Shown one piece after another: positions 1 to 16,442 of a stretch of 61,820 bases of DNA. Both the position numbers and the translations under genes were made by a program. Below the pieces are notes generated by a model. That model was not told the DNA's origin, ran no database searches, and saw nothing but the letters and a program-made list of their open reading frames with translations. Location: contig ML992502.1 in NCBI GenBank assembly GCA_010093995.1, forward strand, positions 1,520,635 through 1,582,454, given 5' to 3'. Positions within the stretch are counted from its first letter, which is position 1. Each line of letters opens with the position of its first letter. The DNA is from Elsinoe ampelina. Its lineage: Eukaryota.

Positions 1-1433
1 AACATTTGTTTTATTAACTACTATTACGTAAAGGAGAAAGAAGTTCACCTATATACTAATAGCGTAATAAGAGTAAAGTCCCTTAACTAGTATAAGATAC
101 ACTTATATAGATACTACTATCTTATAGTAGAAGCTACTAACTACTATAGCGTTATAAAGAAGATTCGCTAGTACTTCGAGTTAGTAGAGATAAAGAGATA
201 TAACTTAGTACTAGGCTAGATATAGCTCTTTAGTATTAACCTAGATATCGATTAGTAAAGCTAGAGGTAGAGACATTACTCTACTAGCGTTAATATAACG
301 CTCCTAATAGCGGAAGAATTTGCTAAGGAAATGTTAGAGTAGCTATAGTACTATATAGTTTTCTTAAATATAATCTATAAAGATAACACTTTAACGTTAT
401 AGAGTAGACTTCTAAGCTAGCTCTATAACTTCTTAGATGTATTTAACAATAAGAAAGCTATTACTATACCTCCTCCGGCGCTATATAACTACTTAATCGA
501 ACTTATTAAAGGGAAGTAACCTCTATAGAAATCTATTTACGCCCTCGTAGAGACAGAGCTAAGTACTCTTAGAGAGTACCTAGCTAAGAATTTAAAGCTA
601 GGCCGTATTTGCTACTCTACTAGCTCTATAGAGGCTTCTATTCTCTTTATACCTAAGGCTAATAAGTCGCTACGTCTCTATATCGACTACTAAGGTCTTA
701 ATAACGTCTTAGTAAAGAACTACTATTCTTTGCCCCTTATTACTAAGATACTCGATAGAATCTAGAGGGCTAAGGTATACTTAAAAATAGATCTTAGAGA
801 TATATACTACTATATCTAGATTAAGGGAGGCAACGAATAAAAGATAGTATTCTAATATAGATATAGATATTTTAAATATATAGTTATACCTTTTAGCCTC
901 GTAAACGCTTCTACTACCTTCTAGTTATATATTAGCTAATACCTCGATAGCTTAGTTAATTACTACTATATTATCTATATAGACAATATTCTTATCTACT
1001 TCTAAGATTCGTTATAGTACCGTAGGTATATTAAAGAAGTTCTAGTATAACTTAGGAAGTATCTTCTTTTTATAAAGGCTTCTAAGTACGCCTTTAAAGT
1101 TAAGGAAGTATAGTTTCTAGAATATATTCTAGGCCTCGAGAGTATCTCGATAGAGCTCTAGAGAGTTTAAGCTATTATAGACTAGCTAGAACCTACTTCT
1201 CTAAAAGAACTCTAGATCTTTCTTAGATTTATAAACTTTTACTAATAGTTTATTAATAGCTATATAGAAATAATAAGACCTATAATATAACTACTTATAG
1301 AGAGCAAAAATAGAAAATAGGTAGGTCCTTTCTACTTTACTAATAGTGCTAGGCAATTATTCTAACATCTTAAAGACTACTTTATAACTACTTCTCTTCT
1401 ATAGTTTTTTAACAAAAGTAAGAATATAAGAAT
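1..1433 (+). pseudogene. Gypsy-1 pol part 1 (protease end, reverse transcriptase)
   Basis: De-RIP reading gives LRLCIDYQGLN...SKIDLRDAYH.IRIKGGDEWKTAF...MPFGLVNAPATFQ...YMDDILIYS. The YxDD motif is at ~977-988 (tat ata gac aat). Many RIP stop codons. Confidence 0.93.
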
Positions 1434-1757
1434 TAGAGTAGTTAGTAGGTAGTAGGTATTCTACTACGGGTAGGGTAAGGTATTATTTCTTAGCACAGTA
1501 GGTATAGGTTAAGTAGAGTATTCTTAGTAGTAGGTATAGTAGAGGTTAGGTAGTAGGTATTTCGCGTGCCTAAATACTCTACCTACTATAACCTACGCCT
1601 ATACGTAGGTAGGTATTACGTAAGTAATAGAAGCTTCTCTTAATTCTCTAATATAAGACATTATATAGAATTTAAAATCAGGAAGAATAGTAATAATTAT
1701 AGTCTCTAATTATAGCATCTTATACGCTTAGTTATCGTATTTATAAATAGTTCTATC

Positions 1758-4490
1758 CTATGCCCTTATAGACAATCTTATACGCTTTACTAGAGGCTTA
1801 TTATTATTAATATTATTGTCCTTCTCGTAATTACTTAGAACAAAGTTACTCTCTTAAGAAGGTAGCTTAAGTAAGTTATCTACCTCGTCTATAGTAGTAT
1901 CTTTATAACTACTATTAATAGTATCTTAATAACTACTAGTAATAACATTGCTACTTAACAAAGAGGGACTTATTATAAGCTTTATAATAATAAGCTACTA
2001 GATAGTTTATATAGTAAGCTAGTATCTTCTATTACTAATAATATTCTTTGCTATGTTAAAGATATATTCGATACCTACGCTAGCTATTAGTATAGCAAGA
2101 ATATTATAAGCGACTTTAGTAAGCTATAGAAACTTCTTCTTGTTAGTCTTTTACTAACTAAGCAACTTAAATTTAGTCCCTAGTTAAATTCGGACAGGAG
2201 GAATACTAAGGTAATTCTTACTCTCTTAATATATAGTTCGTCTCTCCTTCTCTCGTTCTAGAGATATAGACCCTATACTAGATTAGAAGCTAAAGCTAGT
2301 CTACGGAGAGGTAATCTATATAGGTACTCGAGGTCGACGGAACTAATTCTCTTTATTATTAGACAAGATTATAGCGTTAAGGGTTTTAGGTTAACTTAAT
2401 AGTGATTTACTATTATAATAACTAAGGTAGTTAAGGAACTACTCGCAATACTTCCCCTTATTAGTTTTAGCCTAGGTCTTATCCTATATTACTATTAGCT
2501 TTACTATAATAATATATCTATAAGCTATAAACCTTATAGGGAGTTAGCTTTTATAAAGGGTCGAGAATAGTGCTATAATTAAAGAGGTAACCTCTTTTAT
2601 TATTAGTGTAAGAATAGTACTTTAATAGTTTATCTTAACTATATTACGCTACCCTTCTAACTACTATAGGCTAATACTCCTTATTATTCTTCTTCTTGCC
2701 TATAATACTATTCTTAATTATATTAAGAAAGTTAAATAGTTAATTGTATATTATCTAGATATATAAGATCTATAGGTAGCTAATAGTACTTAGAGAGGTA
2801 GTTACTTCCTTAAAGTTCTTAAGCATTTTTATAACTAGCTTAAGGTAATTCTATTCTATACTATTAAGATAAAGACGCTTAAGATCCTTATAGTCTAGAT
2901 TACTAGTGTTATTACTAACTAAGTTAGATCTAGTACTAGTAGAGCCTTTTAGTGCAATTTCCTACTTAAGCTATTTATTAATAAATAGCCTAAGCTCGAG
3001 ACTATACTTATATATATTAAAGGTTAAGTTCTACTACGTCTTAACATCTTAAATAATAACCTTACGCTCTTAAGGCGTTATAGTTTATTAGAGGTTAATA
3101 AACCTCTTAAACTATTAAGGTAATTAGTTAATAGTAATATAAGTTACATAAAGCTAGTAATTTATTAGACTATAATTAGAAACTATAATTAGAAAGCTAA
3201 CCTTCTAAAGCGAGTTTAGTACCGAGAGTTTAGTAGAGATATCTTTTAAGTACTATCTTTTAAGCCTAGTAGCCTACTCTTCTTCCTTAGTAGTCTAAAG
3301 GTTAAGGTGCTTAATAATGTCTTATATAACTAAGTTAATAATATATATAAGGCATGGAATAGTATTCTCTTACGAGTTCTATATAATACCTATCTATCTT
3401 AGAAGCTTATATATAGTCTTACGTAACGTACGATTATTACTTATATTATCCGTAGTAATTACTAGAAGCTAGTTCTAGAGATTGTACTACCGGAGTACCT
3501 ATACAAGCTTAGTAGCTATATTCTGCCCTATATATTAACCGCGAAGTAGTACTATATCTAATAGTTGTTCCCGGAGCTACTATTAGTCGTTAATATAATA
3601 AGCTTTAATTATAATAAAGCCTAAGTAGTTATTAGTAGACTAGCTATTAAGTGTAATTAAAATCTTTATAGTCTTATTAAGATTCTATAATAAGCTTTTA
3701 TAGAGAGTCTTAAATTCGTTAATAAAGAGTGTAGCGAAATAACTACGGCTTAGTATAAGTGCTCCCGGGTATAAGAACTATATAAACTGTTAAAATAATA
3801 GTTGCTTAATAGTATAGAAGAACTAATTATAGTTAACAACTGTTTAAACAAGCTCTAATTAGAAGCGAGTAACTAAATATAATAGAACGTTTTTCTAATT
3901 AATTACTAGATAAGCTCGAAGTTGTATAAGTACTTAGACTACTAGTACTTCCTTATAGACTAGTCTTATTACTTTCCTACAAAAATTTAACTCTCTATAT
4001 TTGCTTATTATATTAGTACTATTCTTTCCTAGCGTAGAGTAGGTAAGAGTATTACTACACTATAGGTAGTAAACGTATAGACGGCTATCTAATACCTATA
4101 TAGCTTCTCTAAAATATCTCTATACTTGTCTAGTTCTTAGTTTTAAGTTCTAGTATAGTATATAGAACTCCTTAGAGTAACTATAGCGAGATACCTAAAG
4201 TGTTAAGTTCTACTATGTTAAGAAGCTTTAGAGGTCTATTTATTTATTAGGACGTACTAAGAGATTAAGCGTTAGACACTTTAGAAGATACTATTATATA
4301 GGCTAACTACCCTTATTGTGTTATTATATAGTAAAACGATAGTTAAGCAAATCTTAAGGGATAGAGATTACTATAACTAATAGAGTTAATAGAAGACGTA
4401 GTTATAGATTAATTAGATTATTAGAGTCTACTATAGTAGAGTAGAGGTTATATAGTATTATAGACAGTATAGATATTTATAATGTTATAC
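1758..4490 (-). pseudogene. hAT transposase (RIP-inactivated)
   Basis: Minus-strand de-RIP motifs: BED-like finger VHCPQC...MSKH...C (~3980-4080), PF..VEQ..F...PSR (~3740-3820), catalytic ITLDGWS (~3640-3660), dimerisation domain FPQLAKVARD.LAIP.ASVG.ER.FN (~2045-2140). Start approximate. Confidence 0.9.
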
Positions 4491-4781
4491 TTATTTAGCT
4501 ATATAATTTTAAATAATAGATTTGTTTTTAGACTATTAGAAAGTCTTCTTTACTATTACTTTACGTAAGGCATTTTAAAACGCGCTAGTAGCCTCTATAT
4601 AATTATAAATATTAATTATAACTAACATTTTCAATTCTAACCTTTAAAGCATATAATAAATAGAAAGGATTAAAGTATTATTATATTATATTATTATAGT
4701 AAAGAAATTTATTACTCTCGCTATACTATTTCTCTAGTATAAAGTACTACCTAAAGCTCTAACCCTTAACGTATTACCGAC

Positions 4782-5286
4782 CTAGAACTTCTTATAGTAG
4801 CGCTTAGCGAGGCTAGAGTCCTTAGCCTAGATAGTAATACGCTTAGTATAGATAGTATTAAGGTTTATATCTATATATAGTGTTAATAGAGAATTTAACA
4901 TATATTAGATAAGTATATACCTTCTATATATCTAATAATAAATGCCTCTACTAATTCCTAGAGAGCTCTAATTACACTAGTCTAGAAGTAGAGGTTAGAC
5001 TTAAAGTTCTAAGCGATCTTATAGATAAGGTAAGAAAAGAAAAGCTTATAGAATAATAGAGTAACTTCTTTCTAGTAGCGACAAATCTCTTAGAGAGCGA
5101 CAGCTAGCTTCTATTAGTTCTATACTATAATTAAAGACTATAATAATTACTACCGGGCTTATATCTATACTTCTTTCTAGGCTTAGCTCCGGATTATAGC
5201 GCCTTCTTTATAGTAGGTTACTTCCCTTTATAACCTCTTTCTCTAGGACTAGTAGTAGCTTAAGGACGATTCTTAGTACGTGCTAT
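4782..5286 (-). pseudogene. Histone H3-like gene inside hAT element; 3 exons (5286-5151, 5103-4921, 4870-~4782)
   Basis: Direct translation after removing two GT-AG introns (5150-5104, 4920-4871): (M)ARTKNRP*...KPRKKYRYKPG|TVAL*EICRY*KEVTLLFYKLFFSYLIYKIA*NFKSNLYF*TSVIRAL*ELVEAFIIRYIE|DINLNTIYTKRITI*AKDSSLAKR. This is H3 RYKPGTVALREIRRYQK...LVREIAQDFKSDLRFQ...EDTNL.AIHAKRVTIQ.KD with transitions. The 3' end may extend to ~4727. Confidence 0.93.
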
Positions 5287-5631
5287 AGTAAAATAAGAGG
5301 TTATTTATGTATAGCTAAGGAGTTAAAGTTCGTATGTAAAATTTTAATATATATAAAATAGTAAAAAGAGAAGGCTAGAGTAAGAAATATAAAATCTATT
5401 ATTAGATGCGCTATTTACTATTAATAATAAGAATAATAGAAGAATAATAAATAACTTATATAACAATAGCTTTCTTGTTTCTTATCCTAGCTTTCCCTTT
5501 TATTATTTTATACATTTATAAATTGTAATTTTTAACTTTAACTTTACCTTTATACTTTTACCTCTTTTACTTACTTTATGTATAATTTATATACTACAAA
5601 TACTCTTTTTATTACATTTAATTAAATATCT

Positions 5632-6890
5632 ATACCTATAGAAGATATTAAGATAGAGTAGAAAGAGCAGGTAGTAATTAAGTAAGAAGAAGACTCTAGG
5701 AAGAATATTCTAAAGGAATTGTTAGAAGTATTAATTATAGTTTCTTATTATATATAGTTACTAATAATGCTAGAGGTTTAATTCTAAGTAGTAGGAAATT
5801 AAATACTAGATCTCTTAGCGTAGTACTAGTTAAACTAGAAAAGGCTATAAGACTAGATTTGTCGCTAGATACTCTAGACCTCTAAGTTAAAGCACTTATA
5901 CTATTAAGTAGAGAGATTATACTTCTTAGCGCATATATAAGAAGTAAGCCCTAGCTACTACTTATATAGTAGATTATAAAGCAGTTAGTACTTTACGTAA
6001 TAAGATTAAGACAGAGGATAGGTAGGACTAGCTCTCTACTAATAAGTAGAATGTCAAAATTAATAATACTATTAATAATATAGAGGAGAAACGCTTTAAT
6101 AAGTAGAGGAGCGGTAAGTCTATTATTATAGTATACTATTATAGTAGTACTAATTATTATAGGTAAGTAGCTTAAATCTATATTTATATAGACCTATAAG
6201 AAATAGACTAGCATTAGAAAGACTCTATAAAAGTAAGAGTATAATAAGATTATTAAGCATATCTAAGATAATATAGTAGTAAATTAGTAAGGCAAATAAT
6301 AGCTAATATAAGCCTATATATATATCTACAGTACTAGCGGTATTATCGAGAAGCTATAGCGCTAGATTTACTAGGATAGCTATATAAGCCTTATTACTAA
6401 CGACACTAATAATAAATAGGCATATAAGATTTTTTTTAAGTAGCTTAAAGAGCTTTCTCCTACGGAATTAGTAGTCTTATAGGATCCTAACTAGTAGTAA
6501 GTTTATTATAGTCTTTAATTATAGTATATTCTAACAATTATATAGGTAAGTTATTCCTTTACCTCCTAAGTATAAATACATCTCCGAGCTTAAACTCCGT
6601 AGTACTAGGCTATACTATAAAGGAGATAATAATAACAAGTATAAGAAGGAGATTAAGGAGAATAAGGATAAGATCGAAAGGATATTAGATAAAGAAGCTA
6701 GTAGTAAGAAGAATAATTATTTAAGTGTTAAAGTTAAAGATAAGTTAGATAGTAAGGATAAGAATAATAAGGTTATAGAGTACTCTAAGCTTAAGACTAA
6801 CACTAATAATAATAATAAGGATAAGGATATAGAGGATAAGGATACTACTAAGGTTAAGGATAAGGAGATGTCTAATACCTAGGTATAATA
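5632..6890 (+). pseudogene. Unknown degenerate gene in hAT element, divergent from the H3-like gene, with acidic C-terminal tract
   Basis: Codon-like purine-rich frame starting ata cct ata gaa gat (MPMED..). The tract at 6620-6880 reads as D/E/K-rich (gat aat aat aac aag...gag att aag gag) and becomes D/E-rich on de-RIP. Probable introns. No family recognised. Confidence 0.5.
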
Positions 6891-7191
6891 GGGATTAAAA
6901 GTGCAAAATCTGTAAGTAGTAGTATTAGAGAATACAGTTTGTAATTAGAATCTATAATTAGTAATCCTCTCTTATTAACTTTTAAGATTACTACTTAAAC
7001 TTTTTAGATTACTAATACTCTACTAGGTATAAAATTAATTACTCTACTCTACTCTATCTACCTCCTAGTATACTCTACTCTTACCTACCTTAGCGTAGGT
7101 ATACTAAGAGGTAGGTAGGGTATAGGTAGAGTAGAGTATAGGTATCTAAATTGTATACCCTACTCTACCTACTAACTACTCTAATAAGAAT

Positions 7192-8623
7192 ATATACTAA
7201 CTTCTCTAGATTTGCTATCTCTAGAATTACTATATAACTATTTAGCAACGGCGGAGAGAAGGTAGTCTAATAGCACTCTATTATATACTATTTATAGAAA
7301 CTATAGAGAGTAGAGTTAAACTAGCCTATATATAACTAAGAGCTACTTACTGTCCTTATAGTAGCGCGCTACTAGTAGTAGTATCTCCTCTCTATTTCTT
7401 CTACTACTACTATATTTATAGATTATAATAATCTAAAATACTTCTTAATAACTAAGACGCTCTTAGTTTAATAGGCCTACGTTAGCGAAGAGCTATTATA
7501 ATATAATATCTAGATTACCTATAACCTAGAGAAGCTTAATTCTATCGATAAACTATTAAGAAGACTAGACCTAAATACTAGAGATAAGTAAGCTAAGGTA
7601 GACTTATACCTATAGGTCCTAAGAGACTTATATAAGAGGCTAGAGAGACGTCTTCTCCTTAATACTATAATAGTAACTAAGTAAGTTAAGTTAACCTAAG
7701 ACGTATAAGGTAAGATACTAGATATAAACTTAGTAGTTACTAAGGACTTCTTACCGAGATAGTATAGTAAGGTAGAGTATACTAGGAGATCTAAAGATAC
7801 CTAAGAGAGTGTTATAGCCTAAGGCAAGATACTAGATATAGATATAGAAGCTAAGATAGCTCTCTATAAAGGTAGAGATAGTAGGTCTACTTCTCTAGAG
7901 GTAAGTAGTTCCTTTTACTATTCCCTATAGATAACTATAGTAGAGAGATTATAGAGAGATCGTAGAGAACTTACTAGCCCTAGACATCTATATATAATAG
8001 CTACGAAAGAAGACAATATATATAAAGAGGTACTACTAAGACTACTTAGCCTAGTAAAGAGGCTATAGTAGTAAGATACTATAGTAGAAACAACGCTAAA
8101 GCGTCTTAGCAATTCTAAAGAAAGAGAGACTACTAAGAGAAAGAGCTAGAGATAGTAGAACAATAGCGTTCTACTATTTTAAGATAAAGTCTTTATCCTA
8201 GCTATAAAAATGCTAACTATAGAGATACTCTATAGGAATTATAATAATCTAATAGTAGGCTACCTCGGAATAGAAAAGACACTCTTTATACTAAAGTAGA
8301 AGTACTATTAGAAGGGTATAACAATAGATATTACTAGATATATAAATTACTATAATAAGTACTAAAGAATAAAGGTTCCTCGATATTAGCCCTATAGTAA
8401 AATATAGGCTCTAAGATTGCTCTCTATTAGAGAAGTACTCTAGTATTAGTTAATAGACTTTATTACTAATTTACCTCTAGCGAAGAACTAATAGAGCTCC
8501 GTTACTAATTTAATTTTAGTACTAGTAGATAGAGTGTCTAAATATATTAGATATATTCTAGTAAGAAAAGATATAGAGGCCTAAGAGTTAGCTAATATTA
8601 TAGAGAGGGAGATCCTTAGTTAC
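7192..8623 (+). pseudogene. Gypsy-1 pol part 2 (RNase H, integrase N-terminus)
   Basis: De-RIP motifs HTDSSGFAISGIL, NWPIHDQELL.V, ITDHNNLKYF, integrase HD...AGYLG..KT, and IDFITDLP. Confidence 0.88.
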
Positions 8624-8825
8624 TGTTAAGCGGAAGGCACGTTTAAGGGTAGAGTATTATATAGAACCAATCTACACACTAGTTAGGTAATAGACGAGTT
8701 AATTAATTAAGGAGTCTATCTACCGAAGGAAAGAACAGCTATAAATCCTTAGGACTTAGCATTATATAACCTATAGTTATATAACCTTCGGGCCTGATTA
8801 TCTAGAGAGAGCTATATTCTTAGCA
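8624..8825 (-). repeat. Copia-1 3' LTR
   Basis: tgttaagcggaagg...ttcttagca, near-identical to 13676-13877. Confidence 0.95.
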
Positions 8826-13450: not shown

Positions 13451-13675
13451 ACAGGGTTAAAACCTGTACTAGACTACGTTAGGGAGTCCTTGCTTAATGC
13501 ACTAAGCAACTAGTCTTTTACGCTTTATACCGCCTCTACTAATCTGTCTAGAATCGGATAATAAAGGGGATACGGAGGAGTATACCAGGGAATCCGGCCT
13601 AATTTTGATAAAGCAGATACTTAACTGCTTTATATATAATCCTATACTAGTGCTATAAGCTCCGGGCTTATAACC

Positions 13676-13877
13676 TGTTAAGCGGAAGGCACGTTTAGGG
13701 GTGGAGTATTATATAGAACCAATCCGCACACTAGTTAAGTAATAGACGAGTTAATTAATTAAGGAGTCTATCTACCGAAGGAAAGAACAGCTATAAATCC
13801 CTAGGACTTAGCATTATATAACCTGTAGTTATGTAACCTTCGGGCCTAATCATCTAGAGAGAGCTATATTCTTAGCA
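13676..13877 (-). repeat. Copia-1 5' LTR
   Basis: Direct repeat of 8624-8825, adjacent to the PBS-like motif. Confidence 0.95.
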
Positions 13878-13882
13878 GTTAC

Positions 13883-14840
13883 TATAGGTTCCTAAGAAGC
13901 TAGATTACTAATAGGGGTACTCTATTTAAGTCTAAATTTTAGACGTTTCTCTACTAGAGATAGAAGGTCTAGAGATACCTCTCGATAGTATTCTACTCTT
14001 AAACTAATAGCGCTACGGAGAGGTAGAACTAGATAATTAAATAGTACCTAAGAGTGTTTATTAATTTCTACTAAGATAACTAGCTATACTAGCTATATTA
14101 GGCCGAGTTTTTCTATAATAGCTCCTATAGCGCGTCGCTAGAGGTAAGCCTACTCTACTACATTTACGGAATAGTTCTATATCTCCTTAACAACGTTAAG
14201 ACTAACGCTATAGAGAAGAAAGTAGCTCTATAACTACTAGAAGCACTAGTAGTAGAAGTAAGAGTAAAGGCTCTATAAGACATAAGAGAAGAACTTAAGT
14301 AGTATAGACTTAATACTATTACGTAGTAGAAGGTGTACTATAATAAGAAGTACTAGCTAATAAGGTTTAAGAAAGGCTAAGAAGTTATACTAAGTACTAA
14401 GAACCTCTAGTCTCTCTAGCTAAAGAAGAAGCTAGTAGTAAAGTTTATAGATCTATTTACTATTACTAAGATAGTAAGCTACTAAGTATACTAACTTAAC
14501 CTTCTAGTATATATAAAATCGATTTACTCGACCTTTTATATATCTCTCCTTAAGGCTTATTAACAAAGTAATAACGTTACTTTACTACTAGTAGAGATTA
14601 AGGAAGAAGAAAAATACAAGGTTAAAGAGGTAGTTAATAAGAGCCTTATTAGAGGTAAGACTTACTATAAGGTACTCTAGAAAGGCTATTCTAAAGAGAA
14701 AGCTAGCTAGGAGCTAATAGAGTATCTACGGAATACTATTAGCAAAATTAAGAACTTTAAGAAGAAGAGCCTTATTCTAAGTATAATAGCAAAGTAATAC
14801 TATATTAAGTAAAAGGCTTATAAGGCTTAAAGAGCTTAAA
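13883..14840 (+). pseudogene. Gypsy-1 pol part 3 (integrase core, GPF/Y module, chromodomain)
   Basis: De-RIP motifs YGFPRSWITDRGTLFKSKFW, STAFHPQTDGATERQNQ, KFIGPF, and chromodomain YEVEEVV...YKVLWKGY....SWE (~14613-14715). Confidence 0.9.
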
Positions 14841-15560: not shown

Positions 15561-16148
15561 TAATACTATAGGATTCTAATATTATAGTATAGAAGTTAAG
15601 TAGATAGAGAGAATAAAAGATCTAAGAAGATTAAGGAGAAAAAGAGAAAAGATAGTATATATATATTACTTCTCTATTATCTAAACAATAATACTCTTCT
15701 TAATAATATCTACCTTAACAATAGACCCTTAATAATATAATAATACCTAAGGGGATAATAGGCCCCTAATAAAGGAGCAAGGGTAATCTAAGAGCTATAG
15801 CTTTACTAGGGGCTAAAAAATAAAAGACTTAGATAAAAAGAAGAAGTAGAAAGTAAAAAACTCTATAAACTCTAAAAGACAAAATCTATCTCCTATAGCT
15901 CTAAGCTATTACATCGACTAAGGAACCTATACTTATACCTAGAAACCTAAAGACTATACTAGTAACTACTTTAACTCCTTAAATCTCTTAAGCTCTACTA
16001 GTAGTACTACTAGAGGCTAGCGTAGTAGCGTAGGCAGAAGCCTTCCTAGTAGGCTAGGCGCTAATAATCCTTACTAATAACTCGTTAGTCTTTTAGCTAC
16101 TAGTAAGTAAGGTAGCAAAGTTCTTATAAGTCGTAGATAAATCGTTAT

Positions 16149-16349
16149 TATTAAGAATATAGCTCTCTCTAGATAATTAGGCTATAAAGTTATATAACCT
16201 TAAGTTATATAATGCTAAGGCCTAGGGATTTATAGCTGTTCTTTCTTCTAGTAGATAGACTCCTTAATTAACTAACTCGTCTATTACCTAATTAGTATAC
16301 GATTAGTTCTATACAATATTTTACCCCTAAACGTGCCTTCTACTTAATA
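16149..16349 (+). mobile_element. Solo LTR of the Copia-1 family
   Basis: Reverse-complement match to 8624-8825 over ~200 bp. 5-bp TSD GTTAT at 16144-16148 and 16350-16354. Confidence 0.93.
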
Positions 16350-16442
16350 GTTATTAGAGTTAGATTCTTCTCTCTTTCTCTTCTTCTTAGCAGAAATATA
16401 TTTAGCCTTAAGAGTAGTAATATATTCTACTATTGCAGCGTA

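Follow-up and report, generated by a model that had tools for sequence, protein, structure and literature searches.

A 61,820-nucleotide stretch of the Elsinoe ampelina genome (assembly GCA_010093995.1, contig ML992502.1, forward-strand positions 1,520,635 to 1,582,454; hereafter the window, whose own numbering is used throughout) contains a hAT transposon at 1434-7183, within which a histone H3-like gene is located at 4782-5286 on the minus strand. The element is very probably a copy, disabled through repeat-induced point mutation (RIP), of a high-copy family of three-gene hAT transposons of the type described from Pyrenophora tritici-repentis, in which the H3-like gene (H3L) is an old component that relatives keep intact, with purifying selection acting on its histone fold. 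The window's own copy is dead, its H3-like gene is a pseudogene, and nothing in the window is functional. The evidence for the age of the gene and for selection on it was obtained from diverged, un-RIPed elements found in metagenomes.

The H3-like gene and the element that carries it

A previous annotation made from the letters alone (the sequence-only reading) had proposed a three-exon H3-like gene with intact GT-AG introns, and this structure was recovered exactly on the minus strand of 4782-5286. The gene comprises 136 codons, all of which are collinear with fungal H3 without a single insertion or deletion. Exon 1 (5286-5151) encodes the N-terminal tail and begins with a start codon mutated to ATA (5286-5284), exon 2 (5103-4921) spans the alpha-N to alpha-2 segments of the histone fold, and exon 3 (4870-4782) ends in TAG at 4784-4782 and gave a tblastx match to exon 3 of the H3L genes in related loci. 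Intron 1 (5150-5104, minus strand, 47 nt, GT..AG) interrupts codon T45 in phase 1, and intron 2 (4920-4871, minus strand, 50 nt, GT..AG) interrupts codon D106, also in phase 1.

The likeness of this gene to H3 is beyond chance. When exon 2 alone was used as a phmmer query against the Protein Data Bank (PDB), with stop codons replaced by X, the best match had E=1.6e-9 and all 60 of the listed chains were histone H3; a HMMER search of a representative protein library with the same exon resulted in 1047 proteins at E<=0.001. Exon 2 also matched the Pfam Histone family (E=0.0035), with a score under the gathering cut-off because of RIP damage. Word-indexed protein searches carried little weight, as RIP destroys the shared words: the RIPed exon 2 gave no match, and the 32 candidates that shared words with the RIPed exon 1 included none at E<=0.01. 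Among the best 150 HMMER matches of exon 2, the 59 that were inspected were canonical-type H3 proteins or mis-predicted fusions, and neither the window's tail nor a recognisable centromeric H3 (CenH3) was present in those 59.

CenH3 proteins are characterized by replacement of Q68, absence of the ARTK start and a loop 1 that is longer than that of H3. That the window's gene is a CenH3 relative is exceedingly improbable. The conserved Q68 is indeed replaced and the tail is divergent, but ARTK is retained and loop 1 has the length found in H3, with the fungal H3 form being restored once C>T and G>A changes are undone; the sequence-only reading was accurate on both of these features. Moreover, neither CENP-A nor Cse4 was present among the top 60 PDB chains matched by exon 2, and the H3L of P. 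tritici-repentis is described by Manning et al. as neither H3 nor CenH3 (PMC3538342).

The placement of the gene between the terminal inverted repeats (TIRs) of a hAT element, upstream of the transposase and on the same strand, was likewise upheld. The element spans 5,750 bp and has perfect 19-bp TIRs at 1434-1452 and 7165-7183, the left copy being identical to the reverse complement of the right (16/16 positions in the scan, extended to 19 by eye). It is flanked by a perfect 8-bp duplication of the target site (TSD), ATAAGAAT, at 1426-1433 and 7184-7191 (8/8 identical). A scan for inverted ends accompanied by direct repeats returned one exact solution, and none was obtained in 20 shuffled sequences. 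The transposase pseudogene occupies approximately 1800-4392 on the minus strand, with homology demonstrated for 4149-1857 and the upper limit of 4392 extrapolated from residue 1 of P0152, an intact relative. In tblastn searches with intact relatives, residues 82-617 of P0152 aligned to 4149-2530 (E=7e-82) and P0155 aligned to 2501-1857. The hAT C-terminal dimerisation domain was identified at 1980-2216 on the minus strand (PF05699, E=2e-8, 34.4 bits, the cut-off being 21.4), and DUF659 gave no Pfam match in the element at E<=1.

A RIPed central open reading frame (ORF) at 5795-6882 on the plus strand is the third gene of the element. It was recognized through three collinear homology blocks at 5795-6151, 6321-6395 and 6610-6654, for which local alignments that allowed for RIP gave scores of 23.5, 16.5 and 15.5-18, compared with shuffled maxima of 18, 12 and 13-19.5; the third block is thus borderline, and the first was also found by tblastn with the central ORF of a related locus, L005 (E=4.3e-5). 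Downstream of these blocks, an open frame rich in Lys, Asn and Asp extends the central ORF to 6882 and is the RIP product of an acidic Asp/Glu tail. The region between the divergent H3-like gene and central ORF (5287-5794) is defined by position only; the same divergent pairing is present in related loci, and from its position the region presumably was a bidirectional promoter.

The element bears an extreme RIP signature. The whole 61.8-kb window has a G+C content of about 30%, and within the element and its flanks the TpA/ApT index is 1.86-2.2 and the (CpA+TpG)/(ApC+GpT) index is 0.14-0.22. In addition to the change of ATG to ATA, the H3-like gene contains nine in-frame stop codons (four TAA, five TAG), and the transposase contains at least 48, with 48 counted across the 547 residues aligned to P0152. 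Contigs from sequencing runs under three organism labels covered 1300-7300 in 1298, 6835 and 732 pieces, and contig depth climbed sharply within the TIRs in two of the runs. Transitions made up 525/627, 392/435 and 312/354 of the differing places in the three runs (84-90%). Given the many pieces and the preponderance of transitions, the element belongs to a high-copy family whose members differ mainly by RIP-type changes. Of 774 differing places, 40 were listed and one of these falls in the H3-like gene (4975), which is too few to describe the tail in other copies. One sequencing run, guessed to be RNA, had no contigs on the element, which has no bearing either way on expression.

Un-RIPed relatives and the age of the H3L

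Relatives of the element were identified by using the RIPed transposase core (P0151 residues 300-690) as a query, which resulted in five proteins at E<=0.001. Four of these are P0152-P0155 (E=2.8e-72 to 1.8e-57), and one is named Boeremia exigua. The protein with this name, P0155 (1299 aa), has its hAT transposase part fused to a long unrelated C-terminal part with PF03184 and probably reflects a gene model that merged two neighbouring transposons. A search with P0152 then yielded 11 metagenome loci with G+C contents of 37-50%. All five loci that reach past the central ORF (L002, L003, L005, L008 and L009) carry an H3L within inverted terminal repeats. Another four (L001, L004, L006 and L007) are close relatives in which the sequence ends too early to show an H3L, and L010 and L011, the remaining two, match only distantly or in part and gave no H3 hit. 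A RIP-tolerant search of the related loci for the window's TIR gave no convincing match; these loci end in G-rich terminal inverted repeats of their own.

In each of the five loci, the H3L reads as an open frame of 144-164 aa once its GT-AG introns are spliced out, and the H3L of L009 matched the Pfam Histone family at E=5.1e-27. The introns are located at KPG|T (phase 1, T45) and FE|D (phase 1, D106), exactly the two positions found in the window; intron 1 is present in L002, L003 and L005 and intron 2 in all five. L008 (1087-605, minus strand) and L009 (694-212, minus strand) are nearly identical elements in which intron 1 is precisely absent and intron 2 is kept, which suggests an intron loss inside the element lineage. 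The gene order is the same in all five loci, with the H3L on the minus strand followed by the central ORF and the transposase on the plus strand. The central ORF, which is multi-exon and common to the loci (1374-2510 in L009, 1300-2325 in L005), is always positioned head-to-head with the H3L and matched no Pfam family. Fungal H3 and H4 genes are likewise paired head-to-head. The central ORF includes a K-G-R-P-T-N stretch, which may be AT-hook-like, and a conserved acidic block rich in Asp and Glu. The transposases of the five un-RIPed relatives are 52-59% identical to each other, and their H3L folds are 64-76% identical.

Because the window's element has a homologous transposase, the same gene neighbouring the H3-like gene and the same introns, we read the gene as an H3L. 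The H3L in turn appears to be an old component of the element lineage, since the relatives keep introns at the same positions and have derived residues in common with the window. To define such residues, columns were called diagnostic if at least three of the four H3L lineages agreed on a state absent from canonical H3, and the window's codons were compared with reversal of C>T and G>A changes allowed. Of the nine diagnostic columns, the window is compatible with only the H3L state at four (Q68S, S86A, C110N and I124S), with only the canonical state at one (T107), with both at three and with neither at one. A C-terminal YY-x-K-F/Y ending, which takes the place of the canonical ending, is also common to the window and the H3Ls. 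Compared with canonical fungal H3, the window's gene is alike in its 136 codons, ARTK start and restorable loop 1, whereas it differs in having S68, N110, S124 and the altered ending, in the absence of K9 and in being a transposon-borne pseudogene.

These residues bear on the proposal that the host's own H3 was captured at the DNA level in this genome, recently and independently of the other H3Ls. Such an event would agree with the collinearity of the gene with fungal H3, with the restorable loop 1 and with a fold that is slightly nearer to canonical H3 (71/90 aligned positions reachable) than to the other H3Ls (61-68/90), and Dhillon et al. hold the P. tritici-repentis and Mycosphaerellaceae events to be independent (PMC6710886). 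We nonetheless consider it very unlikely, as the H3L-only states outnumber the canonical-only state at the diagnostic columns, the C-terminal ending and both intron positions are those of the H3Ls, and the element has the same divergent neighbour gene and a homologous transposase. The window's gene is instead read as a putative slowly evolved member of the H3L family. The sequence-only reading had postulated DNA-level capture, and the introns do show descent from an unspliced genomic H3; judging from the relatives, the capture was not an event of this copy, nor probably of this genome.

Selection on the H3L was examined in the 10 pairs that can be formed among L002, L003, L005, L008 and L009, with the fold and the tail treated separately. 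In seven pairs the fold gave rough ratios of nonsynonymous to synonymous divergence (dN/dS) of 0.095-0.156, with dN of 0.24-0.34. The ratio was not computable in two pairs in which dS was saturated, and the L008/L009 pair was identical, with a dS of zero. Tail dN was higher, at 0.47-1.04, which is two- to fourfold that of the fold. The low dN/dS, the five open reading frames and the conserved splice sites argue for purifying selection on the fold of the H3L in the un-RIPed relatives, alongside a fast-evolving tail, and some function of the H3L for the element is likely. Neutral evolution of intact copies, an outcome that the sequence-only reading had considered, was therefore not seen for the fold.

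The opposite reading is that the H3L is a functionless passenger, a transduplicated host H3 that drifted mostly in its tail and was amplified because it lies between the TIRs. The very different tails of the relatives with their high dN are in keeping with this, as is the death of the window's copy. In the same vein, Manning et al. wrote that the P. tritici-repentis H3Ls "may have undergone drift" (PMC3538342), and the hAT-borne H3 copies of Mycosphaerellaceae are all described as RIP-inactivated (PMC6710886). We regard the passenger explanation as unlikely, however, because five of five un-RIPed H3Ls are open and keep GT-AG introns at conserved positions despite the divergence of their folds, because the fold dN/dS is low, and because the position of the H3L beside the central ORF is conserved.

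The precedent in P. tritici-repentis that the sequence-only reading had cited is real (PMC3538342). As described by Manning et al. (2013), this hAT element is about 5.6 kb in length and contains a transposase, a central ORF and an H3L for which there are expressed sequence tags; its copies are multiple, nearly identical, un-RIPed and expressed, and its H3L has insertions in the tail (PMC3538342). The window's element is alike in size (5.75 kb), hAT ends, a transposase with a dimerisation domain and multi-copy occurrence, and the same three genes are present between its TIRs and in the metagenomic relatives. It differs from the published description in that the copy has been destroyed by RIP. 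The arrangement differs as well: in P. tritici-repentis the central ORF appears to lie upstream of the transposase on the same strand, a layout deduced from the chimeric-ORF deletion given in that paper, whereas in the window it is on the opposite strand with the H3L in between (PMC3538342).

A second group of hAT elements, about 9.5 kb in length and with H3 retrocopies, was described from Pseudocercospora fijiensis and five other Mycosphaerellaceae (Dhillon 2019, PMC6710886). According to the account of these elements in that paper, their H3 copies are intronless and number one or two per element, and DUF659 was found and no dimerisation domain detected (PMC6710886). The two groups are alike in being hAT elements with an 8-bp TSD, high copy number, location in AT-rich blocks and inactivation by RIP. 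In contrast to the described Mycosphaerellaceae elements, the window's element is smaller, has a single H3 copy with two introns, and has PF05699 and no DUF659 match. The window thus fits the P. tritici-repentis type in gene content and size, and the Mycosphaerellaceae type only in fate.

Several observations weigh against an old, selected H3L of the P. tritici-repentis type, in addition to the nearness of the window's fold to canonical H3. Pairwise identities of the transposases and H3Ls gave a Spearman rho of -0.75 (p=0.08, 6 pairs), so that co-divergence of the two genes is unsupported. With dS at 1.6-2.5, near saturation, the dN/dS ratios are rough. The H3L/central-ORF module of the window is inverted relative to the transposase when compared with all five loci, and is a structural variant of the family. 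The tail of the window's H3L has no insertions, unlike that described for P. tritici-repentis (PMC3538342). Membership in the P. tritici-repentis family rests on the published description together with the metagenomic relatives rather than on the sequence of the P. tritici-repentis element or of PTRG_00559.

Tail divergence at the K9 and K27 sites

Trimethylation of H3 at K9 and at K27 (H3K9me3 and H3K27me3) marks heterochromatin in fungi, and the sequence-only reading had stated that both ARKS motifs of the tail were replaced by changes that transitions alone could not explain. Each codon of the window was compared with fungal H3. If the canonical residue could be regained by undoing RIP transitions, it was scored as reachable; if not, as unreachable. 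Within residues 5-38, 10/34 positions were reachable and 24/34 unreachable, compared with 72/92 reachable in the fold (residues 44-135), and RIP alone cannot account for the divergence of the tail. At the K9 site, the codons in place of A-R-K-S encode Pro, a stop, Ala and Thr, and only R8 is reachable; A7>P, K9>A (GCT) and S10>T are unreachable, and K9 is gone. The K27 site reads T-I-K-K-A, in which A24, A25 and R26 are reachable, K27 is present and S28>A is the only unreachable change. The statement therefore stands for K9 and fails for K27, where the A-R-K of residues 25-27 is restorable and only S28 is not.

The related loci vary at both sites. L005 has TARKS at the K9 site and AARTT at the K27 site. 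L008 and L009 have KASKS and AARKS at the respective sites, L002 has NSAKS and AARKQ, and L003 has VAKKP and SARKT. The H3L tails of L002, L003 and L008/L009 also have insertions relative to H3. ARKS persists at the K9 site in L005 and at the K27 site in L008/L009, and a tail lacking both motifs is thus no trait of the family.

It had been suggested that the H3L counters silencing, with selection having removed the K9 and K27 motifs from its tail, such that nucleosomes containing it would escape H3K9me3 and H3K27me3. The replacement of K9 in the window, the unrestorable residues beside it and the overall divergence of residues 5-38 would favour this suggestion, as would the alteration of the K9 context in four of five lineages, including the window, and of S28 in four of five. 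It is weakened by the T-A-R-K-S that L005 keeps at K9, the A-A-R-K-S of L008/L009 and the A-R-K of L002 and L003 at K27, and the presence in the window of K27 within a reachable A-A-R-K at 24-27, and no lineage demonstrably was without both lysines before RIP. The family was also not spared genome defence, although this is a weak point, as RIP acts on DNA. With the window's copy being a pseudogene besides, the suggestion did not hold up as a description of this gene; it is speculative, the comparison of K9 and K27 partly counts against it, and we consider it distinctly unlikely that the H3L acts in this way.

Insertion site, intron motif and proposed history

The element was inserted into the pol gene of a long terminal repeat (LTR) retroelement, creating the 8-bp duplication. 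A reverse-transcriptase domain of this host was identified at 649-1125 on the plus strand (Pfam RVT_1, E=2.7e-12, frame 1) and its RNase H domain at 7184-7468 on the plus strand (RT_RNaseH, E=3.2e-5, 24.5 bits against a cut-off of 24.8, frame 2), and excising the element together with one TSD copy (5,758 nt, 1 mod 3) joins the two domains in one frame. The host (1-1433 and 7192-8360, plus strand) is a RIPed Ty3/gypsy-like element in which RVT_1, RT_RNaseH and Integrase_H2C2 occur in order, and the hAT is a nested insertion amid a patchwork of dead repeats. An imperfect palindrome of about 120 nt (72% identity), built of TAGGTA/GGGTAG-like units, occupies 7026-7159, immediately internal to the right TIR; these units look as though they correspond, in RIPed form, to the G-rich subterminal repeats that the related loci have. 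Further along the window, 8617-8822, 13675-13885 and 16141-16356 contain long repeat arms, inverted and direct, that measure 145-161 nt and are 84-89% identical; these probably represent LTRs or termini of further repeat families within this AT-rich block.

A short repeated motif was observed in the related elements. Each related hAT locus contains 7-19 occurrences of the 8-mer TTATCACA, where about 0.3 would be expected and shuffled sequences gave at most 3, as counted throughout each of L002, L003, L004, L005, L006, L008 and L009. The 8-mer is often paired at a distance of 13 bp and follows the orientation of the local gene. In introns of all three genes it lies just downstream of the 5' splice site, and it is also found in the intergenic region between the H3L and the central ORF and near both ends. 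In the window's element, the RIPed form TTATYAYAG occurs seven times (0.86 expected, shuffled maximum 5), at 5138, 6123, 6154, 6503 and 2504 and also at 3685 and 4691. These sites include intron 1 of the H3-like gene (5150-5104), which contains a RIPed version of the family's TTATCACAG motif, as well as ORF breaks or frame shifts that are read as introns of the central ORF and the transposase. One possible role of the 8-mer is as an intron-embedded site for transposase binding or for regulation. An exact 26-nt inverted match between 5121-5146 and 6503-6528 exists because the intron motif is common to the genes of the element, and a second H3-like copy at 6494-6528 was rejected on the basis of a local alignment score of 59, compared with a shuffled maximum of 62.

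The history that best fits these data would begin with an ancestor of the hAT lineage taking up an intron-containing fungal H3 gene, from which the H3L would descend. The later steps are demonstrated for the window: the element inserted with an 8-bp TSD, the family was amplified, and all three genes decayed by RIP. In active relatives, we infer, the H3L and the central ORF would be transcribed divergently from their shared region, and the H3L protein would be made, deposited in nucleosomes and change chromatin to the benefit of the element. More speculatively, the H3L may act with the acidic central-ORF protein as a partner. Six of the nine family-specific substitutions fall in residues 103-133, which form the contact between the two H3 copies of a nucleosome (H3-H3'), and these substitutions may affect pairing with host H3. 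A stronger version of this proposal holds that the H3L belongs to the core of an old hAT lineage with three genes, spread across several fungi, has long been under selection and could form its own nucleosomes, with the central-ORF protein serving as a chaperone or targeting factor that alters chromatin; we put this forward tentatively, as a possibility on the doubtful side.

Other selfish genomes encode core histones. Bracoviruses encode an H4 with an extended tail, an instance of a mobile or viral genome encoding a core-histone variant, and such variants are a possible way to manipulate host chromatin. The hAT element is alike in being a selfish element that encodes a core histone with an altered tail, and it differs in the histone, the host kingdom and the type of element. 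Literature searches turned up only these two reports on hAT-borne H3, and they yielded no functional test of the H3L (PMC3538342, PMC6710886).

With the window, the list of fungal genomes where a hAT family carrying H3 spread and later succumbed to RIP grows by one, an unsurprising result that agrees with the published picture. The diverged, un-RIPed elements that have the same H3L, introns and partner gene and a constrained fold shift the interpretation from a captured host gene fragment toward a transposon gene with a function. Intact natural H3L sequences are now at hand for testing the chromatin hypothesis. If it is true that a transposon supplies its own H3, this would be a new route by which mobile DNA meets heterochromatin-based genome defence.

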